From NCBI GenBank assembly GCA_017512465.1, contig JAFWGH010000025.1:1-52662 (forward strand): a DNA stretch of 52,662 bases, read 5' to 3'. The first letter of the stretch is position 1. Every line of letters starts with the position of its first letter. Made by a program: the position numbers and the translations under genes. This DNA is from Clostridia bacterium (GTDB lineage: Bacteria > Bacillota > Clostridia > Oscillospirales > Acutalibacteraceae). Below are positions 1 through 22,760 of the stretch, in pieces. The notes under the pieces are model-generated. The model did not search any database, was not told where the DNA came from, and saw only the letters and a list, made by a program, of their open reading frames with translations.

Positions 1-3000
1 TTCAGCTTTTCGGGAATTGTGATGCTGATTGTCTTGGCATCTTCATCCCATTGCGCGCTAAAGAGATTCGTCGCTTCCGCAGGAAGGGCACTGCCTTCAT
101 AATAGGGTTTATAATCCTCTGTCACATCCACGGGTTTCGTGTTCTTTTCAATCTTAAGAACAACATCCTCTTTAAGTGCATCCTTTACTTTTGTATTATC
201 CGGATCATTCTTCAAATCTTCAAGGGATTTATAGTAGTTACGGAAGAAATATTCTTCATCTACCGTGAATTTTGCGGTGGCATCGCCGGCGTAATAATGC
301 TTTTTATCAACAGTCCGCACACTATCCACATACTCGATTTGGGTGAATACCGGGTTTTTGGTATCCACAATCACGCCTCTAAAATCATCCTCTTGTGTAG
401 AAGAGCGACCGGAGTTATCTGTTGCGGAATAGGTGATTTGCCCCTCAAAGTCCGCTACGGTTTTCGGAACAGAAATCTCGTAATAATAGGAGCCGTCTGT
501 ATCCGGTGTAAGGCTCTCTACGGGCACGGTAACTGCCTCATCCTCACCGATTTGGTAAGTGATGGAAGCGATGTTGGAATGCTCATCCTGTGCTCTGAGC
601 GTAACCTCTGCCGGTGCGTCATAGAAGCCGAAGGTAATGATTTCCAGCACTCTGTATGCCAGTGCAGTGGAGTATTCCAGATTAAAAGTGGTCGGATTGA
701 CTTGGTCAATCTTTACCTCTTCTCTTTCAAGGACAGCCGAAATATAACCGGTTGCCTCTTCTTTAACGGCAAAGCTCGGCTTAGTGATACCGTTTTGCTC
801 ATATGTCAGCTTATCGCTGTTGTTAAAGGCATTCGGGTCAGTATTCTCATAGCAAAGAGTATAACCCTCTTTTGCTTGAATAGTAAGCGGCAGTTGATAC
901 CACTCGCCTTCCCCTTCATCCTCATCGGCATTTATATATTGATATGTAGAGTTATCATAGACAGGATAGGTAATACTCAAATCACCTTTTTGAATCGTGA
1001 TTTCATAGTTTTTGGTAACCTCGTTTTCGCCCTCAAAAATCTGGCAGGAAGCATCGAGCAAATCTTCATAATTGCCGACTTCCTTATTTTCACCAAAGAA
1101 GCTCACTTTTTCCGTGTGAGCAGGGTCTTCTACCAAACCGGAAATGGTGTAGCGGTCCTGATCTGTTTCATAATCATAGCCCTGTGCCGGGTGATTCTTT
1201 GCGGTATAGGTAGCATCTACATTCTTAACGCTTAAGGTTGCCGGGCGCTTTTCAATTGTCAGTTTTGCCTGCTGATAGGTAATATTATAATCATCAGTGA
1301 CATCTACATTTTCATCGCCTCTGAGAATAACTGCGTCCTTAACATTAACAAAGTGCTCACCCGCTTCGGTAGCTTCACCATCCGGCTGAATGGAAGTGAG
1401 TCTATCATCCTCGCAAAGAGATACAGTTGCATTTTCTGCAATAGTTGTATACGGCTTTGCGTTGTACGTAACGGTTCTCGCAGCGGTTTCAATGGTAACG
1501 TCTTTCCGGCTGATAACAGAGGTAACCTCGACTCTTCTGGCATCGCCGGAGGCATAGTTTTTATCTAAAACAACTATTACAGGATATGTTCCCGCGTGCA
1601 CAAACTGCGGGCAGCTGTCATAGCTTTCACCATTATATTCATAATGGTCTACCGGGTCCTTGCCGCCGTCAATCGTGGTGCTCACCTGAACCGCAGCATG
1701 CGGTTTGCTGTCATAATCCTCATTATAAGTATCAAATTTGACACTGCCGACATTTGCCGGATTCACAGCAGCACCTACGCATGTTTTAAATACATTATAA
1801 TTATTGTTTCTTGTAACCTTAACATATACATTAGTATTGTCATCCACCTCTTTAATGGTGGGCATTTGGTCAGTATATGTCTCATCATCGGTGGAGTACT
1901 CAGTGGTATCACCCGCAACGGTTCCCGTCACCGTAACGGCATCATGTGCCTTCGCATCATAATTCACAGTTGTTCCCGTTACGTTGATACCGGTAATATC
2001 AATCGGGTTTACCGTCAGCTTAGCGGAAAACTCCACGCTCTTATAGTTAACCTCATCCTCGGGTGTAAAAACAGCCGTGTATTCTGTAGACTGGCTGTCA
2101 TCCACCTCAGGTGCTATGGAAGTATCCTTCCACTCCGCTGTGCCGGGTACAGTTTTTTCACCGGCATGTCCGCTTACGCTTGTAAAGCTGCTGTCTTCCA
2201 AGGTTTGCTGATAGGAAATGGGTTCTACTGTATAATCCCCATCACCAATTACGGGAGTACCCTTTTCAACCGTAATATCATAAGAAATCTCTTCGGAAGA
2301 ATAATGATAATCGGTTTCAATTCTTGCCGTGATGGTTGCACTACCGACCTTGTGCGCGGTAATAACGCCGCTTGCATCCACGCTTACGGTTTCACTATCC
2401 GAAGAAGTATAGGTGACCTCACCGGTAGTATTGTTTTGGCTTGATGCTTGATTGCTCAGTGTTTCACCAACACCGATAGCACTCGGAGTCGCATCCGCAA
2501 ATGCGAAGGAATCATCATGTGTTGTTTGAACTCTGCCTTCGCCGTTGCAGAAATCACATGTCACTTCCTCTTTGCCGGTGCCGGCGCAATTCGTACAGGG
2601 GATCTTGGTTTTGCCGGTGCCGGAGCAGGTTTGACAGGTTTCGTCATGTGTTTTTTGACCGGAACCTTCGCATGCCGTGCACTGTGTTTCGATAGTTTTG
2701 TTTCCCAAGCAAGTCGGGCATGGGGAGCCATCTTTCTCACCGGTGCCGCCGCAATCGGTACAGTCTATCGTTACATTGCCGCTACCGGAGCACACATCGC
2801 AAGCTTCGGAAACCGTTTTGGTTCCTTTACCCTCACAATCAGAGCAGCTGGTATCAACCTCTTTGTTGCCATGACACACGGAGCAGTCTTGCTCTACGGT
2901 TTTATTACCGTGACATTCCGGGCAGGTTTCATACTCATTTTCCACATAACCGGTACCGTTGCAATTGCTGCATTCGATTTTGCCGCTACCGTTACAAACG

Positions 3001-3437
3001 GTGCAGTCAATCTCTACGTTGCCGTTGCCGGAGCAGGTTTGACAGGTTTCGTCATGTGTTTTTTGACCGGAACCTTCGCATGCCGTGCACTGTGTTTCGA
3101 TAACTTTGTTTCCCAAGCAAGTCGGGCATGGGGAGCCATCTTTCTCACCGGTGCCGCCGCAATCGGTACAGTCTATCGTTACATTGCCGCTGCCGGTACA
3201 CACATCGCAGGTTTCGGAAACCGTTTTGGTTCCTTTGCCCTCACAATCAGAGCAGGTGGCCTGCACCTTTCCGTTTTCACAATCGTGACAAGCTACAAAG
3301 CCGCTACCCAAGCAAATCGGGCACTGCTCTGTGACTGTCTGAGCCGACAATACCATGGAAAGCGGAAATGATGAGAGAAGCATCATTACCACCAGCACGA
3401 TTGCCAGCACTTTTTTGCTGATTTTTACCTTTTCCAT
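1..3437 (-). CDS. Large Sec-exported cell-surface/adhesin-like protein. The 5' end is complete and the C-terminus lies beyond the window. It has a signal peptide, 20 DnaJ-type CxxCxGxG zinc-knuckle motifs, a Big_2-like domain and MBG/YDG-type repeats.
   Basis: The gene is absent from the ORF track because its stop lies outside the window. Hand translation of the minus strand starts at the ATG at 3437, with GGAGGA 7 nt upstream. It gives MEKVKISKKVLAIVLVVMMLLSSFPLSMVLSAQ, then CPICLGSG, CSDCEGKG, CDVCTGSG, CTDCGGTG, CPTCLGNK, CTACEGSG and so on. A Big_2-like stretch follows (TYTSSDSETVSVDASGVITAHKVGSATITA), then repeats of the type TYNAKPYT...NYxITYQxGxLTI. I read the frame as open down to position 3 (...SAQWDEDAKTISITIPEKL). 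The three long + strand ORFs here are codon-aligned antisense shadows with junk-like composition. Confidence 0.8.
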   Translation of the reverse strand, partial: MEKVKISKKVLAIVLVVMMLLSSFPLSMVLSAQTVTEQCPICLGSGFVACHDCENGKVQATCSDCEGKGTKTVSETCDVCTGSGNVTIDCTDCGGTGEKDGSPCPTCLGNKVIETQCTACEGSGQKTHDETCQTCSGNGNVEIDCTVCNGSGKIECSNCNGTGYVENEYETCPECHGNKTVEQDCSVCHGNKEVDTSCSDCEGKGTKTVSEACDVCSGSGNVTIDCTDCGGTGEKDGSPCPTCLGNKTIETQCTACEGSGQKTHDETCQTCSGTGKTKIPCTNCAGTGKEEVTCDFCNGEGRVQTTHDDSFAFADATPSAIGVGETLSNQASSQNNTTGEVTYTSSDSETVSVDASGVITAHKVGSATITARIETDYHYSSEEISYDITVEKGTPVIGDGDYTVEPISYQQTLEDSSFTSVSGHAGEKTVPGTAEWKDTSIAPEVDDSQSTEYTAVFTPEDEVNYKSVEFSAKLTVNPIDITGINVTGTTVNYDAKAHDAVTVTGTVAGDTTEYSTDDETYTDQMPTIKEVDDNTNVYVKVTRNNNYNVFKTCVGAAVNPANVGSVKFDTYNEDYDSKPHAAVQVSTTIDGGKDPVDHYEYNGESYDSCPQFVHAGTYPVIVVLDKNYASGDARRVEVTSVISRKDVTIETAARTVTYNAKPYTTIAENATVSLCEDDRLTSIQPDGEATEAGEHFVNVKDAVILRGDENVDVTDDYNITYQQAKLTIEKRPATLSVKNVDATYTAKNHPAQGYDYETDQDRYTISGLVEDPAHTEKVSFFGENKEVGNYEDLLDASCQIFEGENEVTKNYEITIQKGDLSITYPVYDNSTYQYINADEDEGEGEWYQLPLTIQAKEGYTLCYENTDPNAFNNSDKLTYEQNGITKPSFAVKEEATGYISAVLEREEVKIDQVNPTTFNLEYSTALAYRVLEIITFGFYDAPAEVTLRAQDEHSNIASITYQIGEDEAVTVPVESLTPDTDGSYYYEISVPKTVADFEGQITYSATDNSGRSSTQEDDFRGVIVDTKNPVFTQIEYVDSVRTVDKKHYYAGDATAKFTVDEEYFFRNYYKSLEDLKNDPDNTKVKDALKEDVVLKIEKNTKPVDVTEDYKPYYEGSALPAEATNLFSAQWDEDAKTISITIPEKL
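2619..3259. repeat. Intragenic direct duplication: two copies of about 233 bp at 2619-2851 and 3027-3259, offset 408 bp, with few mismatches.
   Basis: Direct comparison of the two stretches. It is also visible as near-identical shadow ORFs offset by exactly 408 nt (2677-2874 vs 3085-3288, and the tails of 2501-2695 vs 2720-3103). 408 is a multiple of 3, so this is an in-frame duplication of a block of CxxCxGxG knuckles. Confidence 0.85.
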
Positions 3438-3440: not shown

Positions 3441-3869
3441 TTATTCCTCCACATTTGAAGTAATATATTTATAATTTTTTCCATTTAATACACAATGCAT
3501 TTCCAATGAAAAAAAGAATAAAGCAATACTGATAAAGCCAATGAATAACTGACTTTTTAAAACTATAAACACGATAGAGGCAATACAACTGACTATCATC
3601 AGGCAATCAAACACAATTGCCGCTTTATTGCTGAAAAAACCGATAAGTCCGATTTTGCCTTCATCGAATCCTGCAGCCTTTCGCTGCTTTGAGAGTAGCA
3701 CACATAGGATAATGCCCGCTATCAAGCCGAGCCAAAATATTATCCCGATGATAATACTACCCGCTCTGCCGCCGCGCGTAATATCATTTGTTAAACCCGC
3801 AAATGCCAGTGCGAGCGCGGATGCTCCAAAGCATCCGATTTGTGCAATAAACAAACGCTTTTGCTTCAT
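3441..3869 (-). CDS. Small polytopic membrane protein (about 4 TM), function unknown.
   Basis: 142-aa ORF with four hydrophobic segments. Its stop lies 3 nt before the start of the surface-protein gene, so the two are probably co-transcribed. Confidence 0.6.
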   Translation of the reverse strand: MKQKRLFIAQIGCFGASALALAFAGLTNDITRGGRAGSIIIGIIFWLGLIAGIILCVLLSKQRKAAGFDEGKIGLIGFFSNKAAIVFDCLMIVSCIASIVFIVLKSQLFIGFISIALFFFSLEMHCVLNGKNYKYITSNVEE

Positions 3870-3880: not shown

Positions 3881-4456
3881 CTATAATATTACGTCTGAAT
3901 GGATTACCATTTCATTTTTGACCAGTTCAAAGGTGCCCACATGCGCTTCTTTCGCATACTCAACTTTTCTTGCTACATCTACTGCCGTATTTTTAGGAGC
4001 AGTGTCTTGCTGCGAGAGCAGCTGTGTACCATCATTTTCACCCATAGCCGGTGAGAGTACCTCGGTGCCCTCCCCTGCAGGTTCAATACCGATGGGAGCG
4101 GTCTCTGCCACAGCCGGAGCCGGTGCCGCCTGCACTTGTTGCACCGGCGGTTTCGACATTGAGTTGGGATTGAGATGCTTTGCTTCAGTGGACTTAGGCG
4201 CCGGTGTGAAGCCGAATTTGATGGAAGGGGTAACCTTCTGTTTCGCTTCCTGCTCACCCTGCTGCTTACGCATCTCACTGATGCCCTGCTGCTTTTTACG
4301 CCCGGTTAAATATGCATACACACTTTTGATATCAAACAGGAAAAAGAGTGCAATCCCTAAAACCAGGAAAATTGCCGCCAACGAATAACCGACAATGGAT
4401 ATAATTTTATATGCAGCGGTAGGGTCGGTTGCGGCTGCTAAAGTAATCAAATTCAT
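3881..4456 (-). CDS. Single-pass membrane protein with a low-complexity Q/A/P-rich region, function unknown.
   Basis: 191-aa ORF with an N-terminal TM (IISIVGYSLAAIFLVLGIALFFLF), then a charged, Pro/Ala-rich linker and a short conserved-looking C-terminus. AGGAG lies upstream. It starts 15 nt downstream of the kinase gene. Confidence 0.6.
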   Translation of the reverse strand: MNLITLAAATDPTAAYKIISIVGYSLAAIFLVLGIALFFLFDIKSVYAYLTGRKKQQGISEMRKQQGEQEAKQKVTPSIKFGFTPAPKSTEAKHLNPNSMSKPPVQQVQAAPAPAVAETAPIGIEPAGEGTEVLSPAMGENDGTQLLSQQDTAPKNTAVDVARKVEYAKEAHVGTFELVKNEMVIHSDVIL

Positions 4457-4471: not shown

Positions 4472-6232
4472 TTAAGATTTTTCGCTTGCGGTTAAGTTTT
4501 CACGAATGGAATCGTTTTTAGCAATCAGCTCATTTTTCAGCTCCAGACGCGCTCCGTCAAGCTGTGTGAAGTTATTTAACTGCTCATAAACCTGATTCCA
4601 TTTGTTCAAAGCCTGTTCTTTGTTGCCGTTAGCGCCGGCAAACTTGTTCACTAAATCGCTATCCGTTAAGAAGTCTGAAAACACTTCAAAGACCTTCAGC
4701 TTCACGCCATCGTCTATTCCCTGATCGATAACGCTGTCAACCGCAGCTTCTAAATCTTGATATAAGGTGACGAAGTTGACTGAATCGCTATACACATCAG
4801 TGCCTTTGTTCGCATTGAATATTTCATTGTAGCCATCAATCATGCTCACCAGCTTTTGTGCGAGATCGTAATCAATTTCACTGTCGGATTTACCCTGATT
4901 ACTGCTGTTCAGGTCTTCTTGTTCAATTCCGTTATAAGCTCTAACCAACCAGGTTTTCGCAGTGTTAGACTGTAATAACGTGTTGCCATCGAAAAATTGC
5001 AACAGCTTGATGCCGATCTTGTAATTCATCACTACATATGCATTCGTATCTCTTTGAATGATATTGACAAATTTACTCTCATTGGATTCATCCGCTGTTC
5101 CCAAATAAGATTGGAAGCGATTTAATTCATCCGAGGTGATCTCTCTGTCTTTATCATTATCCACAAATGCCTGCAAATAATCGGCAAAGTAATTTGCCAG
5201 GTTTTGCGGATCATCATTCATATAGCCTTGAGAAAATGCCGCTTCATAGTCTACAATCGCATCCGCGCCGGTTTCCTCCGATGCTTTTTGAATGTACTTT
5301 TCATATAAAGATTTTGAGTTGGCATTTCCTAAAATCGTTCCGGTGAGACCTATGAGCAAAGATACAACCATCGCAATGGCGCACCCCAAAAAGACATTAA
5401 ATCTTTTCTTTTGCTGCACCCAATAGGTGCGGGTGTTTTCCTCCATGTTTTCCAGCGCATATTTCAGCTCTGCGCAGGATTGATAGCGGTCATTCGGGTC
5501 CTTTTGAATACATTTGAGAATAATCGCCTCCAACCCCGGTGAGAGTTGCGGGTCCCACTGCCTGATGGGATACATCTCATAAGGCGGTTCTGCCGGACTG
5601 TGCCCTGTTACAAGGTGATAAAGCGTTGCACCCAAGCAATAAATATCGGTTCGCGCATCGGTTTCGCCCTGACCGCCGAATTGCTCCGGCGCAGCATAGC
5701 CGATAGTACCCAAACAAGTGGTATCTTGAATATTGGTGCCTTTATATTCTCTGGCAGTACCGAAGTCAATCAGACAAACGCTGCCGTCCGGCTTGAGCAT
5801 CACATTGGAGGGCTTCATATCGCGGTAGATGATGGCGGGCTGCCTTGTATGCAAATAATCCAGCACATCACACAGCTGCTTTGCCCACTCCACAACCAAT
5901 TCCTCCGGTTGTGCGCCGCTCTCCTCAAGGCGTTTATTTAACGGCTTACCCTCTATGTAGTCCATGACAATGAGGAAGGAATCCTCTGTCTCGATAATAT
6001 CGACAATATCCGGCAAGTTGGGGTGGCTGAGTTTTTTGAGCATATCGGTCTCTGCGACCAGACTTTGCTTAACGACCTCAAAGTCCTTCACTCCATCGCG
6101 GCGCACCTCTTTAATCGCCCATTGCTTCATTGCTTTTCTGTTAATCGCAAGATACATAACGCTCATGCCGCCTTGACCGACTTTGGAGAGTATTTCGTAT
6201 TTGCCGTCAATCAGTGTTCCGTTTGCTAACAT
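4472..6232 (-). CDS. Membrane Hanks-type Ser/Thr protein kinase: cytoplasmic kinase domain, one TM, and an extracytoplasmic helical domain of about 280 aa. No PASTA repeats.
   Basis: Motifs seen: GQGGMSVMY (Gly loop), AIKEV (Lys), YRDMKPSN (catalytic loop), DFG, GTIGYAAPE, DIYCLG. The TM is FLGCAIAMVVSLLIGLTGTIL at about residue 290. Confidence 0.9.
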   Translation of the reverse strand: MLANGTLIDGKYEILSKVGQGGMSVMYLAINRKAMKQWAIKEVRRDGVKDFEVVKQSLVAETDMLKKLSHPNLPDIVDIIETEDSFLIVMDYIEGKPLNKRLEESGAQPEELVVEWAKQLCDVLDYLHTRQPAIIYRDMKPSNVMLKPDGSVCLIDFGTAREYKGTNIQDTTCLGTIGYAAPEQFGGQGETDARTDIYCLGATLYHLVTGHSPAEPPYEMYPIRQWDPQLSPGLEAIILKCIQKDPNDRYQSCAELKYALENMEENTRTYWVQQKKRFNVFLGCAIAMVVSLLIGLTGTILGNANSKSLYEKYIQKASEETGADAIVDYEAAFSQGYMNDDPQNLANYFADYLQAFVDNDKDREITSDELNRFQSYLGTADESNESKFVNIIQRDTNAYVVMNYKIGIKLLQFFDGNTLLQSNTAKTWLVRAYNGIEQEDLNSSNQGKSDSEIDYDLAQKLVSMIDGYNEIFNANKGTDVYSDSVNFVTLYQDLEAAVDSVIDQGIDDGVKLKVFEVFSDFLTDSDLVNKFAGANGNKEQALNKWNQVYEQLNNFTQLDGARLELKNELIAKNDSIRENLTASEKS

Positions 6233-6247: not shown

Positions 6248-7018
6248 TTAAATCAGTTTTACCGTTAACACAGTAATGTTATCATTTTCCTTGCGCTGTT
6301 TGTTTAGCTCCACAATCGACTCTTCTACCTGCGCGATATCCTCTTCGCTTTGTAAATTAGCAGGAGAAAACGCCTTTTCCATCTCTTCAAAGGTGATTTC
6401 GTGACGGAAGCCGTCCGAACAGAGCATGAATACATCATCCTTATTGGCATTGCCCATAAAGAAATCCGGCTCAATAAACTGAGAAGCGCCCACACATTGC
6501 AGCAAAACACTTCTGCGCGGGTCTGTTTTTGCCTGCTCCACAGTCATATTGCCTCTTTTGATTTCTCTGTTCACAAAGGTTTGGTCCTCTGTAATCTGTG
6601 TAAGGCCGACAGCATTACACATATACGCCCTCGAATCGCCGACATTCATAATATAATAATTGCCTGCGTTAATGAGCAGTGTCACTACAGTGGTTCCCAT
6701 ATTGCTGCCCAAGGTTTTGGCATGGCTCATAATTTTGACATTTTGTTCAAAAATCAACTCGCTCCATTTTCTTTCCAGGATGTTGGAATCAAACCCGTTA
6801 TACATCATGGAAGGGAATTCTCTTTGGAACCAATCTTGAAAAGCGCGAATGAGCGTAGCGCTGGCGAGTTCACCATTGGAAAGGCCGCCCATACCATCGC
6901 ACAGCACGCAAAACATGACATTGTCATAATCGGTTTTGGCCTCCATCAACAGCGCTGCATCCTGATTGACCTTTTTTTTGATGCCAATATCTGTATAAAT
7001 ATGAGAAATATAATTCAT
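6248..7018 (-). CDS. PP2C-family Ser/Thr phosphatase.
   Basis: 256 aa with NQDA, VLCDGMGG, GTTVV, VGDSR and LCSDG motifs typical of PPM/PP2C. It ends 15 nt upstream of the kinase gene. Confidence 0.9.
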   Translation of the reverse strand: MNYISHIYTDIGIKKKVNQDAALLMEAKTDYDNVMFCVLCDGMGGLSNGELASATLIRAFQDWFQREFPSMMYNGFDSNILERKWSELIFEQNVKIMSHAKTLGSNMGTTVVTLLINAGNYYIMNVGDSRAYMCNAVGLTQITEDQTFVNREIKRGNMTVEQAKTDPRRSVLLQCVGASQFIEPDFFMGNANKDDVFMLCSDGFRHEITFEEMEKAFSPANLQSEEDIAQVEESIVELNKQRKENDNITVLTVKLI

Positions 7019-7201
7019 CTGTTTTCCTCTTAATCTCTAAATATTTAATATTATAAAAATAACGAAGCAAGTTAACAGGTAATTTTTGCCGCGCACAAGC
7101 AGCGAAACAAAAATTGCCCGTTAACACATATTTATTCCATCAGGAAAATCCGCTTTTAATCGCCGGTTTGCCCTCATTTTTTAAATAAACCCGCAATGCG
7201 C

Positions 7202-7223
7202 AGGCACAGAATTATCTGTGCCT
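7202..7223 (-). terminator. Hairpin downstream of the protease-FHA gene; possible weak terminator.
   Basis: aggcacaga-atta-tctgtgcct, a 9-bp stem just after the stop at 7239. The T-tract is not immediately adjacent, so this is only a tentative terminator. Confidence 0.4.
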
Positions 7224-7238
7224 ACGCTCAAGTATTAT

Positions 7239-8837
7239 TTAGATTTTAAACTCAAATCTTTCATCTGCAAGTTTAATCTTTGCACCGTTGGAAATTTGTG
7301 TTTCCACATTGGCAGGAATCATGGAATCATTGACATAAGTATGGTTGGTCGTTGAATTATCCACGATAAAGAACTGACCGTTTTTCGATACAATAGAAGC
7401 ATGGAAACGAGAGATTGCCGGGTTGCCGGTCACGCAGTAATCCACGCGGCTTGCATCCTTACCAAGCTTGAAATAGGGTTTGGTAATATTAATCTTCTCG
7501 TTATTGGAAAGTCTGAGCAAGTATGCAGTGGAACCTGCACCGCTCAAAACAGTTGTTGCATTCGGGTCGGAAGCATTAGCGCTGAGCACGGTTGTACCCT
7601 CACTGCCCGCAGGCGGTGTATTCGGAACAGAGGGAATCGCCCTTGACTGCGCTTGTGCAGCTGCACCTGCGGGAGCCTTCGCACTCTCACCGGCACCGGC
7701 ATTCTTTTTCTTGTTGAGAAGAATAATTACAACAACTACTATTGCAATAAGAGCAACAGCGCCGGCAATGATGCCGATAAGCGCACCTGTACTTAAACCG
7801 TTTGAAGCAGTTTCAGTGTCATTAGTCGTAGGTTGTGTAGTGGGAGCGGCTGTTGTGGATTCGCCGTCTTTCTTCTCAGATGTGGATGTGCCTGCCTTGG
7901 TGTACTGGATATTTAACATATCAAGTACTTCCATTACCTGGCTGATGGCACAGGAATTCGCAGCACCTTCAGCGCCGCTGCCGCCGCTGCAGATAGCAAC
8001 TGCATTACCGTTTTCATCCACAATCGGACCACCGGAATTACCGGCTTGAACACTGTAACCGGAGTGCATCAACCAGTCACCCTTTACTTGATATGTGGAG
8101 TAGAAGAATCCATCCTCACTGTTGTAAACAATACCTTGATTGGCCAAATAATTGATATTATTTGAATTGAGCAGGTTGTTTTGAACCATTAAGTAAGTAA
8201 ACAAATACATCGGAGCATATCTGGTGATTTCGCCATTGTATTGCGGCTTTGTAGCAGTAGCCTGTTCAAAAGAAACATCATCCGCCGTGTACAGTTTTTT
8301 ACTCTCTTTTTTGGCCGGGAAACCGACGCTGTATAAAGTATCTGCCGATTCAACAGTCTTACTGTCTCTGAGTTTTACCGGCTTTTTAGAGCCAATCGGT
8401 TGTGAAAGCTTTAATACGGCAAAGTCAGCATCATCACTATATGCTGTACCCAAAAGGGTTGCCGGAATTTCCACGTCGCCTCTAACGGAAACGGTGTAAG
8501 TCATGCGCTTATAGATTTCTTTTTCACTTACACGACCGAAGAAGTAGTGAACTGTAGGAATATCACTCGGGTTAATTCTAATACAGTGTGCCGCTGTCAA
8601 AACAGTGTCATCATTGATTAAAAAACACGTGCCTGAAGCCGACATCTCATAATCGCCCAAATCCAAGTGTGTATTAATCTTTAATACACCATTGGCGACA
8701 TCCTGTACCTCCTGTGACGCTGCAACAGCTGGCACTGCAATGGTGAAGACCATGCAGATGAGTGCAATCAACGCCGTAACGCATTGAATCACTCGATGAG
8801 TTTTGAATCTTTTCATCTTCTTTTCTCCTTTTTTCAA
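7239..8837 (-). CDS. Bitopic protein: signal peptide/TM, extracytoplasmic trypsin-like (S1) serine protease, TM, cytoplasmic FHA domain.
   Basis: Protease triad context: TAAHC (His), DADFAVLKL (Asp), GNSGGP (Ser). A T/S-rich linker follows, then the TM GALIGIIAGAVALIAIVVVVIILL and an A/G/P-rich linker. The C-terminal FHA has LGKD...SRFHA...TTNHTYVN. Its start overlaps the upstream stop (ATGA). Confidence 0.85.
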   Translation of the reverse strand: MKKGEKKMKRFKTHRVIQCVTALIALICMVFTIAVPAVAASQEVQDVANGVLKINTHLDLGDYEMSASGTCFLINDDTVLTAAHCIRINPSDIPTVHYFFGRVSEKEIYKRMTYTVSVRGDVEIPATLLGTAYSDDADFAVLKLSQPIGSKKPVKLRDSKTVESADTLYSVGFPAKKESKKLYTADDVSFEQATATKPQYNGEITRYAPMYLFTYLMVQNNLLNSNNINYLANQGIVYNSEDGFFYSTYQVKGDWLMHSGYSVQAGNSGGPIVDENGNAVAICSGGSGAEGAANSCAISQVMEVLDMLNIQYTKAGTSTSEKKDGESTTAAPTTQPTTNDTETASNGLSTGALIGIIAGAVALIAIVVVVIILLNKKKNAGAGESAKAPAGAAAQAQSRAIPSVPNTPPAGSEGTTVLSANASDPNATTVLSGAGSTAYLLRLSNNEKINITKPYFKLGKDASRVDYCVTGNPAISRFHASIVSKNGQFFIVDNSTTNHTYVNDSMIPANVETQISNGAKIKLADERFEFKI

Positions 8838-10054
8838 TTTAAATGAAATACGAATACTTCATTTGCTAATATTATTTCATCCCCGTCAAAAACTTGTACC
8901 GAGGAGTTTGCCTGAATCATATCGCCATTGACATAAGTATGATTTGTCGAGTTTTTATCAATTACAAAATAATCATTTCCGATTACGGTGATTTCCGCAT
9001 GACAACGGCTGACTGCATTGTTGTCGGCAATAGTATAATCGGTGCTGTCATAACTCTTGCCGATAAGAAAACTGCGCTTGGTAATATAAATCTTTTCGTT
9101 GGTGGCTTTGCGCACTAAATTCGGTGTGTTGAAGTTATTCATGCCGCCGCCTAAAACAGAGGTCTCTCCATAGTTAGTAAAACCCAATAAAGTGGTTTCA
9201 CCAAAATCGGATTCCGGATCCGGCAAAACAGTTTCATCTGCAGGCGATACCATTGTATCTTCCGTATCTTCTGCCTGCTCCTGCTCTGCCTGCTCTGCCG
9301 CAGGTTCTGCCAAAGTTTCCTCTTGCACAGAAGCTTCCGCCGTCTCTTCCGGGTGCTCTGATGCGGGTTTATCGATTGCCTCTTGTTCGGGCAATGCATC
9401 TTTCGCACATAATTGCACCCCGCAAAGCGAACAGTAATTGGCATCCATGCTGTATTCCTGCCCGCAGGAAGGGCAAACCTTCACTTGAGCGCTATCTTCT
9501 TCTTCTGAAATGTCTTCTGTCGGCTGCTCCTGACTCGGTTCATCGGTGTATGCATCTATCACAGCCTCAATAGGTGCAGCGCTTTGCGCACTCTCGCAAG
9601 CATCTAACAGTTCTTGCTTTAAAGTGTCATCAAACTGCGCCGCCGTTTCGCTCATGCCGAGAATAAACTCTTTTAAAAGCTCCGGCGCTTGCTGTGAGAG
9701 CGCAACGGGCGGTTGAATAAATAAAAATTGCTCTCCATCATAAAAAACGGTTTCAAAGCTTGCCAAAGACGACTGCAAAAAGTCTTCTTCAAAAACAAAC
9801 TTTAAAAACGCGCTGAAAGCGGCAAGCGCCTGCTCGGTGCCTGCTTGAGCCAGCTCATTGGAAAGCAGATTATATTGTTCTGAAAAATATGTAATTGAAA
9901 GCTCTTCGGGAGTTCTTTTCGCTTCAAAGCCAAAAGCCTGAGAGTCGGTAAAATCCGCCAATGCATCCCAACGCGACAAAACCAGGTGATCTTGATCCTC
10001 CCCGGTTAATACAAGTGTGATGGAATTGGTAGTTTTATCGGCGCTAAAATGCAC
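8834..10054 (-). CDS. Cytoplasmic protein with an unrecognised N-terminal domain of about 170 aa, a zinc ribbon, an acidic linker and a C-terminal FHA domain.
   Basis: Zinc ribbon CPSCGQEYSMDANYCSLCG, E/A/Q-rich linker, and FHA motifs IGKS...SRCHAEI...STNHTYVNG. It uses a GTG start 7 nt after GGAGGG. No TM segment was seen. Confidence 0.8.
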   Translation of the reverse strand: MHFSADKTTNSITLVLTGEDQDHLVLSRWDALADFTDSQAFGFEAKRTPEELSITYFSEQYNLLSNELAQAGTEQALAAFSAFLKFVFEEDFLQSSLASFETVFYDGEQFLFIQPPVALSQQAPELLKEFILGMSETAAQFDDTLKQELLDACESAQSAAPIEAVIDAYTDEPSQEQPTEDISEEEDSAQVKVCPSCGQEYSMDANYCSLCGVQLCAKDALPEQEAIDKPASEHPEETAEASVQEETLAEPAAEQAEQEQAEDTEDTMVSPADETVLPDPESDFGETTLLGFTNYGETSVLGGGMNNFNTPNLVRKATNEKIYITKRSFLIGKSYDSTDYTIADNNAVSRCHAEITVIGNDYFVIDKNSTNHTYVNGDMIQANSSVQVFDGDEIILANEVFVFHLN

Positions 10055-10293: not shown

Positions 10294-10683
10294 TTAATTA
10301 TTTACAAATATAAAATTCAAATTTGCCAACGTAATCCTATCCTGATGGTGCAGCAAAATTTTTACATGCGGCTGTGCCTGATTACCGTTGACAAAAGATT
10401 TATTGGTAGAGTTGTTATCAACAAAAAACACATTTGCATTTTCCATGATCAATTGCGCATGATTTCTGCCCACATAGAGATTATCACCGATAACATAATC
10501 ATTGGATTCCCGACTTTTTCCCAAGCGGAAAACCGTTTTATTGATTGGAATATGCTCATTGGTATCTGCCCTTATGAGCGCACAGCCTCTGCCGGCAGAC
10601 GGCTGCGGACTTACCGAGCGCTCAACCTGCCGACTCTTTTGATGCTGTAGTGCTATAAAAGGGTCATAATAAATATTTGACAT
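10294..10683 (-). CDS. Small stand-alone FHA-domain protein.
   Basis: 129 aa with LGKS...GRNHAQL...STNKSFVNG. It starts 6 nt after the stop of the last T7SS helper gene, so it is the terminal gene of the T7SS/toxin operon. Confidence 0.85.
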   Translation of the reverse strand: MSNIYYDPFIALQHQKSRQVERSVSPQPSAGRGCALIRADTNEHIPINKTVFRLGKSRESNDYVIGDNLYVGRNHAQLIMENANVFFVDNNSTNKSFVNGNQAQPHVKILLHHQDRITLANLNFIFVNN

Positions 10684-10689: not shown

Positions 10690-11007
10690 CTACCATATCC
10701 ACGGCAAACGATTTGCAGCATTGACTGCTTCAATCTGCGCCTGTTTGTATTTTTCGCCTGCACTTTTCAAGAATTTTGCATAACTTTCTATTGACTTGCG
10801 CATTGCTTCATAGGTGGAATCCCCGCCGCTGACAGTTGTCCATTTCGCACTGAACTCATAGGCATCCTCGCCCCGCCATTGGTGCATCATGGTGGAAACG
10901 GCAGTATCTGCATTACGCATATTCTTTTTCATTTTCTCGGTATAATCTAAAAGCGCATTTGCCGTTGTTTCAAACTTGCTGTGATCAACCTTAATATTGT
11001 ATCCCAT
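10690..11007 (-). CDS. WXG100-like small helical protein; candidate toxin helper/chaperone.
   Basis: MGYNIKVDHSKFETTANAL... with a WRGED (W-x-G) motif at mid-length. The track start at 11016 is a GTG that abuts the AAGGAG. The ATG at 11007 is better spaced, so that start was chosen. Confidence 0.75.
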   Translation of the reverse strand: MGYNIKVDHSKFETTANALLDYTEKMKKNMRNADTAVSTMMHQWRGEDAYEFSAKWTTVSGGDSTYEAMRKSIESYAKFLKSAGEKYKQAQIEAVNAANRLPWIW

Positions 11008-11019
11008 TTGCCGCACTCC

Positions 11020-11358
11020 TTATTTAAATAACTCACTCAATTTTTTGTTTTCCGACTCTGTTGTTTCATAGCCGATATCAACAGCTTCCGCCAAAAACTT
11101 TATGTATTGCTCCATTACCATGCTTCTCTGCCCCTCGGGGCCGACATAGGTTTGTTTCATTTTATTAAACTTATCAATCGCTTTGTTTGCCGCACTGCTG
11201 CTCCATGTAGCCTTTAGGGAATTCATAGAGGATTGTGCGCTGTTAAAATCCGTATCAAAACGCCGATTAATGGTAGAAAGTGTTCTAACCGCTACTTCAA
11301 CCGCGCCTGTATTGATACTCACTTCGTTTTTTCCGCCGCGTCTTTTTGTACCGCTCAT
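11020..11358 (-). CDS. ESAT-6/Lap-like small helical protein (no strict WXG); candidate toxin helper.
   Basis: 112 aa, predicted helical hairpin, with EVSINTGAVEVAVRTL near the N-terminus. Its C-terminal LSELFK resembles the LADAFK tail of the WXG100 protein at 16429-16734. Confidence 0.6.
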   Translation of the reverse strand: MSGTKRRGGKNEVSINTGAVEVAVRTLSTINRRFDTDFNSAQSSMNSLKATWSSSAANKAIDKFNKMKQTYVGPEGQRSMVMEQYIKFLAEAVDIGYETTESENKKLSELFK

Positions 11359-11372
11359 ATTGCAAACCCTCC

Positions 11373-11621
11373 TTACTTATTAAGTGCCGCTTTTGCATCT
11401 ATAGATGCCTGCACCATTCTGTCAATATGGGAAGGGCTTACAGAACACAGTGTACCATAGGCTGAATAATACTTTTGGATAACCGTGTGAATATAATCGG
11501 CACACTTATCGTTACCGACATTTTTGAAATCCTTCCTAAGCCCGTCTTCAATCGATTCAAGCTCTCGAATAATGCTTAACAACTCTCTTTGATAATCGCT
11601 TAATTGTGAACCTCTACCCAT
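11373..11621 (-). CDS. Small alpha-helical protein; candidate toxin helper.
   Basis: 82-aa ORF beginning 2 nt after the toxin stop. Its composition suggests a helical protein. No family was recognised. Confidence 0.55.
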   Translation of the reverse strand: MGRGSQLSDYQRELLSIIRELESIEDGLRKDFKNVGNDKCADYIHTVIQKYYSAYGTLCSVSPSHIDRMVQASIDAKAALNK

Positions 11622-11623
11622 AA

Positions 11624-13165
11624 TTAATTCAAATCTCCTTTTATTGATTCTTCTGCTTTATCAAATTCTCCGGCAATCTTCACCATTGCAAATGCGCAAC
11701 GCTCAAGATTATAAGAATAATCCAGCAATCTGCCCGCCCTGAGCAACGCCGCAAGGCGCGGAATGGCATCCCATTCAATATCTAAATGCCAATACATTTC
11801 ATTCATTTGCCAATCCAACTCCTTGGCGCGCTTGCAGGCATTGCTGAGCCGTTGGGCATACTCAACCATTTTGTTTGTATTAATTACGATTTGCGGATTC
11901 GCATTGGCATATTTGTAGCCTTCATTAAATGTTCGATTCCACCAATCGGCAACCCCTTGCCAAAAATCGTTGAATGCTTGCACAAATTCCGCAATTCTGT
12001 CCTTTGCCCAATTATAAATTTTTTCAACGACTTCTGCAATAAAGGTGACGACTGCAACCACGATGTCGCGGACAATTTCAAAAATGGCAACGGCAATTAA
12101 TGCGCCAATCGCTATCACGGCTACCACCAGTAAAACATAGGCGGTAACGGCAATTACCTTGACAATACCGAAAATCCCGACAGTGACTACGAGTGCACCG
12201 ATGATAAACTTACCTGCCGTTGTCAGCTTCCCATCTTCAAACATTTTTTCTTTCATCCACATAGCGCCTGTCCACAAAGTGGAAACACAGCCTACAACAA
12301 AGTCTCCTATCGGACCGGGTAAGTGGTCGAACCCTTCGGATACAACACTTGTGATATGTGAAAGGGGATCCTGCTCGCCTTCAATCAAATTGCCGTTTTC
12401 ATCATAAATCAAATGTTCGGTGCTGTGCCGCATAATAGGATAATTCCAATCGTCGTTTTCCTCTACTTGCACATATTTATAATCCACACCGGGCAAATCA
12501 TTCAACATCGTACCGACAAAACTCCATCGTGCATGCCGCATCACATCGCACATCTGCTGAATTTCATCATAGTGCGCTCGAATAAACTCATCCGAAAAAC
12601 CGGGTCCGTCAAGACTAAGGCAGTCCGTAATATTATCATCCAAGCCGTATTTTCCGGAAACAATGGTCGCATATTCCGCCAAATTACCGCCGAGCGAATG
12701 TCCGGTCATCGCTAAACTGTCATACCCGTCTAACAGGGAGCGGTTATTTGCAAGAAACTTTTCCACCTCTGCCTGCTGTGTCGTGCAAATGGAATTAAGC
12801 AATCTTAAATCACCGTTAATCCAGTCATTCTGCACATTGCTCAATGAATCCATGCCTTCACTGCCGCGAAATGCGACAGCCGCATTTCCCGGTGAAGTTT
12901 CAATCACACAGGCGGCAAAACCGGTATCGTTATTTGTGTCATATGCCGCAGAGATTTTCCAAGAGTTCATCTGCTCCGGTGTCAAGCAGTCCAGCGACTG
13001 CAGCTGCGACGCACTGACACCCGCCTTCTGTGCTGCTTCCTTTACTTCGGCAATAGTGAAAACCTTCTTTCCCGGGTTCTCCTTGAGTAATGCGTCATAA
13101 CCTTCTTTTAATTGCGCATAAGCTATTTGTGAAAACAAGCGCATTTCTTCATCGCTATAACCCAA
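11624..13165 (-). CDS. Candidate T7SS lipase toxin 2 with reverse architecture: N-terminal DUF2974/class-3-lipase-like alpha/beta hydrolase, hydrophobic segments, C-terminal WXG/LXG-like helical domain.
   Basis: AVAFRGSEG...MTGHSLGGNLA is a nucleophile elbow (GxSxG). A hydrophobic block of about 70 aa follows (GKFIIGALVVTVGIFGIVKVIAVTAYVLLVVAVIAIGALIAVAIF). The C-terminus GYKYANANPQIVINTNKMVEYAQRLSNACKRAKELDWQMNEMYWHLDIEWDAIPRLAALL is shared with the toxin at 13991-15619. Confidence 0.75.
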   Translation of the reverse strand: MGYSDEEMRLFSQIAYAQLKEGYDALLKENPGKKVFTIAEVKEAAQKAGVSASQLQSLDCLTPEQMNSWKISAAYDTNNDTGFAACVIETSPGNAAVAFRGSEGMDSLSNVQNDWINGDLRLLNSICTTQQAEVEKFLANNRSLLDGYDSLAMTGHSLGGNLAEYATIVSGKYGLDDNITDCLSLDGPGFSDEFIRAHYDEIQQMCDVMRHARWSFVGTMLNDLPGVDYKYVQVEENDDWNYPIMRHSTEHLIYDENGNLIEGEQDPLSHITSVVSEGFDHLPGPIGDFVVGCVSTLWTGAMWMKEKMFEDGKLTTAGKFIIGALVVTVGIFGIVKVIAVTAYVLLVVAVIAIGALIAVAIFEIVRDIVVAVVTFIAEVVEKIYNWAKDRIAEFVQAFNDFWQGVADWWNRTFNEGYKYANANPQIVINTNKMVEYAQRLSNACKRAKELDWQMNEMYWHLDIEWDAIPRLAALLRAGRLLDYSYNLERCAFAMVKIAGEFDKAEESIKGDLN

Positions 13166-13168
13166 TGA

Positions 13169-13972
13169 CTATTCCCCCTTCCCATGCAGTAGTTCCGCCA
13201 AACTTGCGGGTTCCGGATAAATTGTTTGTTCTTTAACGGAAAAAACCACGGTATTGATAAAATACTCATGAAACCGATTATCACTGAATTCCAGCGCATT
13301 ATCTATACCGGAAATACATTCCTCAAAGCGTTCTTTTTCAATGATATACAGCTCTACGGCGACTCCTGCCTGCAGCTCTCGGCTGAAATTAAGCAAACTA
13401 TCAAGAATGCTGTTTAAAGACGCCTGATCGGCTGTATCCGCACACATAAACAAGTCCAAAAGCACCGTTGAGACATGATACTTTTCAAAAAAATCTTTTG
13501 CGCAAAGCGCATCATCTCTTTCGGCACTGCAATCATCACACAACACTTTCGCCTTGCAATACAGGTGAAGTTCCGGTGCAAAATACTGCTCAAGCAACTG
13601 AGCTTCTATCTCGCGCATGCAGCGATTTCTGATGTAGTTGTCTTCAAGCGCCAAGGTGTCACTGTCTGCCACTACACGAAAAGTAACACCGGCTTCATCT
13701 TTGTAATAAACGGTCGCTGTTTTATAATTAAATCTGCCTCCGATAGCGCAAGCCGTAAAGCTTTTTTTATACTTTTCTTCCAGCTTCGGTGTGATAAGAT
13801 TGAGAACATATTCATTAAGATTATACTGCTGTGCGTATTCCTTCATATGTTCCGCATCAATGGCGTATTTTTGCAACTCTTCCGCAAGGGCGGAATCTAA
13901 GCTTATCTGCGCTTCGGGCGCAGTTTCCGCACCGACCGCTTCGGTTGCTTTGTTTTTTTCGGTTTCGCTCAT
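13169..13972 (-). CDS. Acidic leaderless protein; candidate immunity/chaperone protein and probable paralog of the lipoprotein at 15621-16322.
   Basis: 267 aa with no signal peptide. Motif-level similarity to the lipoprotein: LEEKYKKSF..GG...EDNYIRN versus INEKYDDDF..GG...YDNYADV. It lies directly upstream of toxin 2. Confidence 0.5.
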   Translation of the reverse strand: MSETEKNKATEAVGAETAPEAQISLDSALAEELQKYAIDAEHMKEYAQQYNLNEYVLNLITPKLEEKYKKSFTACAIGGRFNYKTATVYYKDEAGVTFRVVADSDTLALEDNYIRNRCMREIEAQLLEQYFAPELHLYCKAKVLCDDCSAERDDALCAKDFFEKYHVSTVLLDLFMCADTADQASLNSILDSLLNFSRELQAGVAVELYIIEKERFEECISGIDNALEFSDNRFHEYFINTVVFSVKEQTIYPEPASLAELLHGKGE

Positions 13973-13990
13973 AGTAACTCCTCTCCGGAT

Positions 13991-15619: not shown

Positions 15620-15620
15620 G

Positions 15621-16322
15621 CTACTTCTCCCAAGAAATACTCTCTATTTTTTGTGCATTGCGCATACGAATGCTTAATTGATTGGTATATTCGTGATTAA
15701 CAACAATCTTATTGGCTATGGAATAATCTGTTTCTAAGTCATCCGTGTAATTATCCAAAAAATAGATATTAACCATATCACAATACATGTGATTGACAAG
15801 TTTTTGTGTGAAAGCATCTTCAATTTCTTGAGCAGACAACTGCTTAGTGTTGTCAACATAAGCAATGATTGTAATACCTCTGTTTAACAAGTAATCCTCA
15901 AACGGCTTATCGGCATCAAAATTACTTGCACTGCCGCCGCTGATTAAATCTTTATACGGCTCATAATGGAAACGCGTATTTTTAAATATTTCAGATAAAG
16001 TGTCATTGATAGATTGATCTGCTTGTTTGCAATATTTCACATCAGCATAATTATCATAATACGCTTCTTCTTTTTTATCATAAATCAATGTCACCGGTAT
16101 TTCCGGATATTTTTTGCTCTTACATAGAATACTGATTTGTCTGTTGTCGCCCCAAGCTTTTCCGCCAAACTCTTCTAAATATTCGAAATCATCATCATAT
16201 TTTTCATTGATATAACTCTCCATCTTTTTTATGGAGTCTTTTCTATTCATACAGCCGCTTCCTCCCAGAACAAACAAAATTATCAGGAAAAATGGAATTA
16301 TTGTTTTTATAATCTTCATCAT
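15621..16322 (-). CDS. Probable lipoprotein; candidate extracytoplasmic immunity protein for the adjacent lipase toxin.
   Basis: MMKIIKTIIPFFLIILFVLGGSGC is a signal peptide with a Cys in lipobox-like context. It ends 1 nt before the toxin 1 start. The position mirrors the lipoprotein immunity genes next to S. aureus tslA. Confidence 0.6.
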   Translation of the reverse strand: MMKIIKTIIPFFLIILFVLGGSGCMNRKDSIKKMESYINEKYDDDFEYLEEFGGKAWGDNRQISILCKSKKYPEIPVTLIYDKKEEAYYDNYADVKYCKQADQSINDTLSEIFKNTRFHYEPYKDLISGGSASNFDADKPFEDYLLNRGITIIAYVDNTKQLSAQEIEDAFTQKLVNHMYCDMVNIYFLDNYTDDLETDYSIANKIVVNHEYTNQLSIRMRNAQKIESISWEK

Positions 16323-16368
16323 AAATCCTTATATTAAACAAGACAACGCTTGTAATTCTCAAATTAAA

Positions 16369-16408
16369 GCAATAGCTTAGGCAGGATTGCTCCTGCCTTT
16401 TCTATTGC
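16369..16408 (-). terminator. Long hairpin after the WXG100 pair; possible partial terminator/attenuator.
   Basis: gcaatag...ggcagga-gcaa-tcctgcc...ctattgc, located 20 nt after the esx stop and followed on the minus strand by TTTAATTT. Such a structure would enrich esx transcripts relative to downstream genes. Confidence 0.5.
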
Positions 16409-16428
16409 TGCCTTTCAAATAATGCGTA

Positions 16429-16734
16429 TTATTTGAAAGCATCGGCTAAGCTGACATTTTGAGTTTCTGTTGCCTCGTAATCCGCAGCAACATTTTGTCT
16501 CAAAAATACAACATAAGCCTTAATAATATCATAATAGTTTTGGAAATAGTTTGAAGCAAAGCTGTCGAAAGCACTAATCGTTGCTGTCGCTGCTTCACCC
16601 TGCCAAGTAGAATTAAGGCTCTTTATCTTATTTTGACTTTCCAATAAAGTTTCATTAAGCTTATTGTTAATGGATTCAATATTATCCGCAATTGACAAAA
16701 CTCTATCGGTACTAATTTTAATGGTTCCGGCCAT
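16429..16734 (-). CDS. WXG100 family protein (EsxB-like partner).
   Basis: 101 aa with IKISTDRVLSIADNI at the N-terminus and a central WQGEA motif. Confidence 0.85.
   Translation of the reverse strand: MAGTIKISTDRVLSIADNIESINNKLNETLLESQNKIKSLNSTWQGEAATATISAFDSFASNYFQNYYDIIKAYVVFLRQNVAADYEATETQNVSLADAFK

Positions 16735-22684: not shown

Positions 22685-22760
<76 letters not shown>

Follow-up and report, generated by a model that had tools for sequence, protein, structure and literature searches.

A predicted membrane-spanning protease-FHA protein encoded in a T7SSe-type secretion cluster of gut Clostridia

The protease-FHA gene and the architecture of its product

The window analysed here is a stretch of 52,662 nucleotides (nt) from a Clostridia bacterium (assembly GCA_017512465.1, contig JAFWGH010000025.1, positions 1 to 52,662 of the forward strand), and the gene under study lies on its minus strand, close to the genes of a type VII secretion system (T7SS), where it encodes a trypsin-like protease joined to an FHA domain through a transmembrane (TM) segment. 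An earlier note on this DNA had read the protein as a fusion across the membrane of an outside protease to an inside FHA domain, and as a possible analogue of mycosin (MycP), the protease of the actinobacterial systems. Its features are the following, with residues (amino acids, aa), here and throughout, in the 532-aa numbering that starts at TTG 8837:

7239 to 8816, minus strand: protease-TM-FHA gene, 525 aa from ATG 8816 (database copy P0001, 525 aa)
8718 to 8816, minus strand: Sec-type signal peptide, aa 8-40, MKRFKTHRVIQCVTALIALICMVFTIAVPAVA followed by AS, with the cleavage site placed by the AxA motif
7917 to 8714, minus strand: extracytoplasmic HtrA/DegS-like (S1C) protease domain without PDZ, aa 42-307 (Pfam Trypsin_2, PDB profile search, Foldseek)
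7791 to 7916, minus strand: Thr/Ser-rich disordered extracellular stalk, about aa 308-349 (model confidence, pLDDT, below 50 at aa 318-349)
7716 to 7790, minus strand: single TM helix, aa 350-374, with NKKKN on the cytoplasmic side (hydrophobicity and AlphaFold2 helix)
7542 to 7601, minus strand: two TxxL motifs, EGTTVLS (aa 413-419) and NATTVLS (aa 426-432), in the disordered cytoplasmic linker
7242 to 7532, minus strand: C-terminal TseJ-type FHA domain, aa 436-532, with motifs GK, SRFH and TNH (Pfam FHA, pLDDT 90-96)
7177 to 7223, minus strand: stem-loop or stem-loops with a T-run directly after the stop codon, conserved

The open reading frame (ORF) 7239..8837 on the minus strand reaches 532 aa when counted from its first TTG, at 8837. 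The true start is almost certainly ATG 8816 (M8) rather than this TTG: 7-8 nt upstream of the ATG stands AAAGGAGAA, with the Shine-Dalgarno GGAG. The TGA of the upstream gene occupies 8836-8834 and 18 nt separate that stop from ATG 8816, thus the two genes do not overlap, as the translational coupling described in the earlier note would suggest.

The two domains stand well above the Pfam cut-offs, with Trypsin_2 over aa 69-282 (E 3.7e-18, 67.1 bits against a cut-off of 27.6), a further Trypsin match on the protease domain (E 4.6e-14), and FHA over aa 457-523 (E 2.6e-12, 47.4 bits against a cut-off of 20.7). All the motifs named in the earlier note were located, namely TAAHC (H84, codon 8586-8588), DADFAVL (D138, codon 8424-8426) and GNSGGP (S268, codon 8034-8036), all on the minus strand, together with SRFHA at 476-480 and TNHTYVN at 497-503, and the N-terminal signal or TM segment, the Thr/Ser-rich linker and the second TM that it had described are borne out by Pfam, hydrophobicity and AlphaFold2. 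In an alignment of 18 sequences of relatives, reaching down to 30% identity, H84, D138 and the whole of G266-NSGGP-271 are invariant, as are the FHA residues S476, R477, H479 and N498, that is, the catalytic triad and the FHA ligand-binding residues are conserved together; GNSGGP is kept by 203 retrieved relatives.

The first hydrophobic segment covers aa 22-40 and ends in AVA before the residues AS, and the second covers aa 356-374 and is followed by NKKKN. Among the 176 family members in which a TM helix and an FHA domain can be recognised, which are also the base of the linker-motif counts given below, the N-terminal hydrophobic segment is found in 173 and at least two K/R after the TM in 172; K376-K378 are conserved in the 18-sequence alignment. 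Relatives carry an extra FIVAR-like helical insert at the position of the stalk, on the extracellular side. The AlphaFold2 model (mean pLDDT 72.9) consists of a two-barrel protease (about 80-95), a helix at 350-374 and an FHA sandwich (90-96), with the linkers 318-349 and 375-435 disordered. The protein is very likely to be a type-I membrane protein, with the protease outside and the FHA domain inside, because the signal peptide, the KKK after the TM, the extracellular FIVAR-type inserts and the disordered cytoplasmic linker all fit this topology, which is also the one that had been proposed before.

The second protease barrel contains an insertion of some 55 residues (aa 196-256, window about 8070-8250, minus strand), seen in the window protein and its closest relatives but in no other part of the family. 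The model shows a hairpin and two helices there (pLDDT 65-80), which could form a lid that selects substrates.

The class of the protease

The search of the PDB with the single sequence gave no match; with the family profile the best match was HTRA1 (6e-21), and the HtrA of T. maritima and that of M. tuberculosis (3e-18) were also found. Foldseek with the model led to the same group, with M. tuberculosis HtrA (2e-11), plant Deg1, MarP (Rv3671c), DegS-deltaPDZ and human HtrA1, the last with the best TM-score, 0.81 when normalised to the target. In Pfam neither a PDZ domain nor Peptidase_S8 was found in the protein, where stalk, TM and FHA stand after the protease domain, and in NCBIfam no curated family covers it, the top match being the MarP family at 27.9 bits against a cut-off of 250. 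Judged by these profiles and by the modelled fold, the protease is a PDZ-less S1C domain of the HtrA/DegS type, with a chymotrypsin fold. As the fold is S1C and not subtilisin, the protein is at most an analogue of MycP and no relative of it; what survives of the comparison with mycosin is the layout of the protein and its location in a T7SS cluster.

The surrounding T7SSe cluster

The division into T7SSa-j and the gene set of T7SSe are due to Garrett, Higginson and Palmer (2024; PMC11217815), who list for T7SSe a pair of WXG100 proteins (TseA1 and TseA2), a YukD-like protein (TseB), an EssC with phosphothreonine-competent FHA domains (TseC), a membrane kinase (TseD), a PPM phosphatase (TseF), a protein with a single TM (TseH), a giant Ig-like protein (TseI), a protein with DUF6382 and FHA (TseJ) and a further single-TM protein (TseK). 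As reference we used a Neobacillus rhizophilus locus (L020), which we take to be that of PMC11217815 because the TseJ fragment shown in Figure S4 there agrees with its TseJ at 97% identity, the mismatches looking like scanning errors. The rest of the cluster in the window is made up as follows:

1 to 3434, minus strand: giant secreted protein in TseI position, at least 1144 aa, cut by the window edge (signal peptide, Big_2)
3441 to 3869, minus strand: small membrane protein in TseK position, 142 aa (by position)
3881 to 4456, minus strand: TseH-like single-TM protein, 191 aa (30% identity to reference TseH)
4472 to 6232, minus strand: TseD, Ser/Thr kinase with one TM and an extracellular C-terminal domain (Pkinase 1.4e-50)
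6248 to 7018, minus strand: TseF, PP2C/PPM phosphatase (Pfam PP2C_2; 47% identity to Neobacillus TseF)
8834 to 10054, minus strand: TseJ-like gene with FHA and Zn-ribbon, 406 aa (Pfam; TseJ comparison)
10294 to 10683, minus strand: extra FHA-only protein, 129 aa (Pfam)
10690 to 16322, minus strand: candidate substrate region with two Mbeg1-like lipases, small ORFs and a second WXG100-like pair
16429 to 17336, minus strand: TseA2 (16429-16734), TseA1 (16758-17060) and YukD-like TseB (17085-17336) (Pfam; Neobacillus comparison)
17339 to 21892, minus strand: TseC/EssC ATPase with N-terminal FHA (Pfam FtsK_SpoIIIE and FHA)
22020 to 22049, minus strand: promoter-like site upstream of essC, TTGACT-18-TATAAT, 11/12 with TG (consensus match only)

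The neighbours that the earlier note had described are thus all present, with the FHA and Zn-ribbon gene upstream, the PP2C phosphatase and Ser/Thr kinase downstream, and WXG100, YukD and EssC further upstream; the cluster matches the Neobacillus reference gene for gene and in the same order, and by this comparison of sequences it is T7SSe, not the T7SSb with which the note had compared it. Identity to the reference is 53% for TseC, over the full length, 64% for TseB, 49% for TseA1, 57% for TseA2, 47% for TseF, 60% for TseD in the kinase domain, 30% for TseH (2.7e-12) and 32% for TseJ, with 45% and 32% for the second WXG pair and 25-32% for the lipase-like protein. TseC scores 1102.8 bits against TIGR03928 (cut-off 778.4), both WXG100 proteins pass the Pfam cut-off, and YukD, at 24.3 bits, lies below its cut-off of 27. 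The catalytic motifs of TseD (K, RD, DFG, APE) are intact. The 406-aa TseJ-like protein matches the C-terminal half of TseJ (32-41% identity), and no Pfam DUF6382 was found in it at E<=0.01. The protein in TseK position has three hydrophobic segments, where TseK is described with a single TM.

What the window has in addition to the reference is the protease-FHA gene, exactly between tseJ and tseF, together with the 129-aa FHA-only protein and a second lipase cassette; four proteins of the window cluster bear FHA domains. The FHA-only gene closes the substrate region, has a counterpart of 140 aa in the Eubacterium locus L019 (20869-21291) and is absent from the Neobacillus reference. Within the substrate region, the two Mbeg1-like lipase-class proteins (11624-13165 and 13991-15619, minus strand) have hydrophobic or helical C-terminal regions and lie among WXG100-like genes; each is preceded by a small ORF (233 and 267 aa) without Pfam match, and an 82-aa ORF is followed by the WXG100-like pair. 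These proteins are candidates for the 'reverse' lipase T7 substrates noted for T7SSe in PMC11217815.

The gene in TseI position runs past the left edge of the window, so that its C-terminal part, with the TM helix expected there, lies outside; from the signal peptide onwards it encodes at least four DnaJ-type CxxCxGxG zinc-finger-like repeats (Pfam 3.3e-20) and then Big_2 Ig-like sequence. Such DnaJ-type Cys repeats are unusual in a secreted protein, and the plus-strand ORFs 51-1235, 1596-2444 and 2448-3371 are shadows of this gene. At the other end of the cluster, a Gut-1 RNA (Rfam RF01706, 74.2 bits against a gathering threshold of 50) lies at 22400-22475 on the minus strand, that of essC, about 500 nt upstream of essC and just upstream of the promoter-like site. 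A tRNA-Pro(ggg) at 22685-22760 (plus strand) and a MobL-family relaxase at 24967-26490 (minus strand, Pfam 3.4e-27) follow there, and a mobile element may border the T7SSe cluster.

The FHA tail, its kinship with TseJ and the TxxL motifs

The C-terminal part of the protease-FHA protein resembles TseJ closely: aa 414-532 align with aa 300-420 of the reference TseJ at 43% identity over 121 aa (7e-29), with both TTVL motifs aligned, and the TseJ-like protein of the window reaches 41% in the same tail comparison. In TseJ as in the protease-FHA protein, the FHA domain, with GK, SRxH and TN(H/K), comes after two G-x-T-T-(V/L)-L motifs, and both proteins are encoded immediately upstream of tseF, whereas TseJ has an N-terminal DUF6382 and is described as soluble and cytoplasmic, and the protein studied here has instead a signal peptide, Trypsin_2 and a TM, and spans the membrane. 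By alignment, its FHA domain is a close paralogue of that of TseJ, and the whole protein is best described as a TseJ-type FHA adaptor in which a signal peptide, an external protease, a stalk and a TM have taken the place of DUF6382.

The TxxL motifs of the linker are candidate kinase sites and FHA ligands. FHA domains prefer an aliphatic residue, usually Leu or Ile, at position pT+3, a preference that TxxL suits. In the 18-sequence alignment T415 and L418 are invariant and T428, T429 and L431 at least 90% conserved. The form T[TS][VLI]L occurs in the cytoplasmic linker at least once in 174 of the 176 members and at least twice in 155, at a density of 2.64 per 100 residues as against 0.05 in the extracellular part, about 50-fold less. 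The motif is also found twice in TseJ, and in tandem in proteins at the TseH position, where all 13 examined (window, L001, L003, L007, L010-L012, L014-L016, L018-L020) show [DE]-x-T-x-[VL]-L between 2 and 10 times in the cytoplasmic tail, with 10 copies in the Neobacillus reference and 2 in the window (GEGTEVLS and NDGTQLLS). The C-terminal end of TseH is likewise conserved, as IH(T/S)xE(I/V)(L/I), also written IH(S/T)xE/D. This tail looks, from its repeats, like a multivalent array for phospho-acceptance and FHA docking, and the T7SSe text of PMC11217815, as far as it is available, does not mention such arrays.

As to the ligand-binding side, the consensus GR...SxxH...NG corresponds in the protease-FHA protein to GK (K460), SRFH (S476, H479) and TNH (N498), and in TseJ-type FHA domains generally to GK, SRxH and N(H/K), while the FHA domain of the window EssC has the full canonical GR, SRTH and NG. 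Phosphothreonine binding by the FHA domain of the protease protein is thus plausible but unproven on its residues.

Distribution of the family and its gene neighbourhoods

An exhaustive phmmer search of 1.84 billion representatives gave 206 clusters at 50% identity with E<=1e-30, nearly all of 465-650 aa and with both domains matched; a word-indexed search gave at least 157 clusters, all annotated Trypsin_2 plus FHA. The names of the sources (Eubacterium, Frisingicoccus, Faecalicatena, including the cultured Faecalicatena faecalis (AGMB00832, protein WP_246597428.1), Ruminococcaceae/Oscillospiraceae, Christensenella and 'Clostridia bacterium') and their habitats correspond to Clostridia of the ruminant and human gut, and gut metagenomes of cattle, goats and sheep contain the sequence of the window itself.

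Neighbourhoods were compared at about 90 loci, 12 distinct ones by exact-protein look-up and 80 from a metagenome scan with an alignment of the human-gut subgroup, and a scan of species genomes with a narrower family alignment gave 5 loci. In 10 of the 12 look-up loci the genes directly after it encode a PP2C phosphatase, a kinase (about 585 aa), a protein with a single TM (170-300 aa), at some loci a smaller one (145-165 aa), and a giant protein (2000-3300 aa); in the 80 metagenome loci the same PP2C-kinase-TseH-(TseK)-TseI series is seen wherever the downstream DNA suffices. In group A, formed by the close relatives of the window protein, the next gene upstream is that of TseJ, and a LytTR two-component pair often stands before it. 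In the large human-gut subgroup (group B) there is no separate tseJ nearby, and therefore the protease-FHA protein appears to hold the TseJ slot.

Only two lineages have essC and the WXG100 genes contiguous with the gene, that of the window and that of the Ruminococcaceae locus L014, whose proteins are just 29% identical. In L019, from a metagenome-assembled genome of Eubacterium, the order is tseJ-F-D-H-I-C-B-A, with essC right after tseI, which would place essC beyond the 10-kb flank in most of the loci examined, where the giant tseI fills the downstream flank of many. The tie of the gene to the T7SSe gene set is very strong, and its association with T7SSe as a system is likely.

Some further observations concern these loci. 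A protein of about 230-240 aa and an Mbeg1-like cassette lie directly upstream of the protease-FHA gene at several loci showing no essC, the cassette proteins being the following:

L012, 8563 to 9816: Mbeg1-like cassette protein
L016, 8551 to 9807: Mbeg1-like cassette protein
L022, 3998 to 5242: Mbeg1-like cassette protein
L086, 277 to 1527: Mbeg1-like cassette protein

A second Ser/Thr kinase is present in L014, as a tandem pair (13354-16524), and in L016, as a kinase-TPR protein after tseI (20962-21494). In the human-gut contig L099 (1802-4407), residues 1-68 of the PP2C are joined to EssC at about residue 725, which looks like a deletion joining two parts of the T7SSe cluster or a chimeric assembly, and was not used as evidence.

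The downstream hairpin and expression

Six group-A loci keep the hairpin at 7177-7223, 5 of whose 12 pairs show compensatory changes, and no Rfam family covers it. The gap between the gene and that of the PP2C is 220 nt in the window and 150-280 nt, AT-rich, in group A, as against only about 25 nt in group B. From these features the element is probably an intrinsic terminator, and it is consistent with the end of an essC-to-protease transcript, which would split the cluster into two transcripts. In one bovine metatranscriptome two short contigs identical to the window cover 7841-8051, within the gene, and 7119-7300, its 3' end and the hairpin.

A possible phospho-regulated protease of T7SSe

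The reading that we favour, at a probability of roughly 60%, is that the protein is an accessory, lineage-specific subunit of T7SSe in gut Clostridia, docked by phosphothreonine and processing TseI or substrates. In this scheme TseD would write, and TseF erase, phosphate on the threonines of the TxxL motifs of TseH, TseJ and the protease-FHA protein, and contacts between FHA domains and phosphothreonine would dock the latter at the cytoplasmic face of the machine by either of two routes: (i) its own FHA domain binding the pTxxL of TseH or TseJ; (ii) the canonical FHA domain of TseC/EssC binding its phosphorylated linker. Such docking would keep the protease, on its flexible stalk of some 30 residues, at the machine's outer face, where it would probably cleave or mature the giant, envelope-spanning TseI, or exported WXG100 partners or lipase toxins, or clear jammed substrates. 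The chances of phospho-dependent docking seem to us evenly balanced, any particular substrate is doubtful, and the cleavage of WXG100 proteins or toxins is pure inference. A role analogous to that of the mycosin of T7SSa, without homology, would follow from the same scheme.

Several facts weigh against this subunit. The essC gene lies within 10 kb of the gene in only two lineages, the window and L014, so that the co-occurrence with essC that the earlier note had wanted tested stands as contiguity in these two and does not extend, within that distance, to the others, the constant partners being the phosphatase and the kinase; in L012 and L016 tseI ends inside the locus and is followed by other genes, with no essC; and in lineage P0041 (L008, L017) the gene is alone, without phosphatase or kinase. 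Conversely, L019 and the Neobacillus locus have no protease-FHA gene between tseJ and tseF, therefore the gene is accessory or lineage-specific, and dispensable for T7SSe in some organisms. Of the canonical FHA residues, the Arg is replaced by Lys in most family members and the Gly by His or Lys; what TseI does in secretion is itself only inferred in the literature; and the RNA support is thin, two short contigs for which carry-over of DNA is a possible source.

An alternative explanation, which we consider unlikely, is that the protein is a kinase-regulated protease of envelope quality control or of the cell surface, belonging to a module of kinase, phosphatase, TseH and giant adhesin that is unrelated to type VII secretion, the nearness of essC being incidental. 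The constancy of PP2C, kinase, TseH and the giant Ig-like protein as partners, rather than essC, agrees with this, as do the lack of anything essC-like after tseI in L012 and L016 and a fold that matches the HtrA proteases, classically quality-control enzymes. However, these partners are the T7SSe-specific core, present at all the T7SSe loci in PMC11217815, and the FHA tail is a TseJ paralogue; moreover, essC and WXG100 are contiguous in two lineages so divergent as 29% identity, essC in L019 comes directly after tseI, barely outside the 10-kb flank, and T7-type lipase cassettes stand directly upstream at several of the loci showing no essC. About equally unlikely is a trans-membrane signalling device of the DegS kind, where the protease would serve as a sensor or a site-1-type protease, trimming for instance the extracellular part of TseD or TseI when envelope or target-cell cues arrive, and secretion would be switched on or off through an FHA domain that passes on or receives the kinase signal, with no processing of exported substrates. 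The nearest folds do include the membrane-tethered regulatory proteases DegS-deltaPDZ and MarP, the gene adjoins a receptor-type kinase with a large extracellular domain, and triad and FHA ligand-binding residues are conserved together; but no anti-sigma-like or RseA-like partner is seen nearby, and the LytTR two-component system near some loci has no link to the protease. The data do not separate such signalling from the maturation of substrates or TseI, as all the steps shown are common to both.

A purely structural subunit, in which the protease fold would do no more than cap the membrane complex from outside or stabilise it, catalysis being dispensable, is less probable still. It would have a parallel in MycP, whose presence rather than activity has been argued to stabilise the ESX complexes (PMC11217815), and the group B protein, in the TseJ slot, suggests a scaffold role. 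The HtrA-type domains commonly form trimers, which would also suit a cap. Nevertheless, the triad of His, Asp and Ser does not vary down to 30% identity, nor does the oxyanion-hole motif GNSGGP, which the 203 relatives keep, and this argues for selection on catalysis. Finally, PADLOC gives matches to RT-Protease_XI, LmuA (protease domain), PD-T4-6 and mad6 (kinase), as if the locus were an anti-phage system of kinase and protease, a reading with hardly any probability. It was rejected, as these matches cover only the generic trypsin and kinase domains, with none for the FHA, TseH or TseJ proteins, and the whole cluster is T7SSe gene for gene.

Returning to the accessory T7SSe subunit, a more specific form of it, which is tentative, is a phospho-switchable coupler spanning the membrane, with the protease recruited or released according to the state set by TseD and TseF, and forming a core subunit in the human-gut subgroup that lacks a separate TseJ. 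If true, this would be the first dedicated protease of a Bacillota T7SS and, together with the TxxL arrays of TseH, a multivalent code of FHA-phosphothreonine contacts for the assembly of T7SSe. What is new here is a T7SSe with a membrane-spanning protease-FHA subunit: our literature search, whose journal coverage was incomplete, found no protease-FHA component of any T7SS, and, in agreement with the earlier note, by which no protease component is known for T7SSb, PMC11217815 names none for any of T7SSb-j.

The phospho-regulation of T7SSe is only suggested in that source, and here a single cluster unites kinase and phosphatase with four FHA domains and with three membrane-proximal proteins that bear repeated TxxL acceptor motifs, which offers direct routes to its study. 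A dedicated protease, MycP, is a hallmark of the actinobacterial systems and is missing from those of Bacillota, a gap that this family would fill convergently. The type VII secretion of Bacillota drives interbacterial killing and gut colonisation, and the variants T7SSc-j were described only in 2024, none of them, to our knowledge, having been studied by experiment. Clostridia of the human and ruminant gut commonly carry the family, among them the cultured Faecalicatena faecalis, and therefore experiments are feasible.

Comparison with known systems

With the HtrA, DegP, DegS and DegQ proteases (MEROPS S1C) and with MarP (Rv3671c) the protein shares the protease fold, the GNSGGP active-site motif and an extracytoplasmic, membrane-tethered position. 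It differs from them in the lack of the one or two C-terminal PDZ domains that define the HtrA proteins, in an anchor that is a C-terminal TM after a cleavable signal peptide instead of an N-terminal one, in the added cytoplasmic FHA domain and, for the close relatives of the window protein, in the insertion of about 55 aa in the second barrel. With MycP the common layout consists of a signal peptide, an extracytoplasmic serine protease, a C-terminal TM anchor and a gene inside a T7SS cluster; the folds, S8 subtilisin in MycP and S1C chymotrypsin/HtrA here, are not homologous, MycP has a short cytoplasmic tail without FHA, and it is universal in ESX systems, in contrast to a gene that is absent from some T7SSe loci.

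On the cytoplasmic side, the protein may be compared with GarA and OdhI, metabolic regulators that are small and soluble and bear a phospho-motif, ETTS, near the N-terminus. As in these, a threonine motif closely precedes the FHA domain within one chain, so that once phosphorylated it could be bound in cis or in trans, and by analogy the self-binding of the FHA domain to its own linker is a possibility. A parallel in logic is to be found in the type VI secretion system (T6SS), in the PpkA/PppA/Fha1 (TagH) pathway and in TssL-Fha of Agrobacterium, where the genes of the secretion machine are accompanied by those of a Hanks-type membrane kinase, a PP2C phosphatase and an FHA protein. There, the binding of FHA to phosphothreonine controls assembly or activation. 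The FHA proteins of the T6SS, a different secretion system, are soluble scaffolds without enzymatic or extracellular domain, whereas in the T7SSe of these Clostridia the FHA domain would be continued, through the membrane, into a protease.

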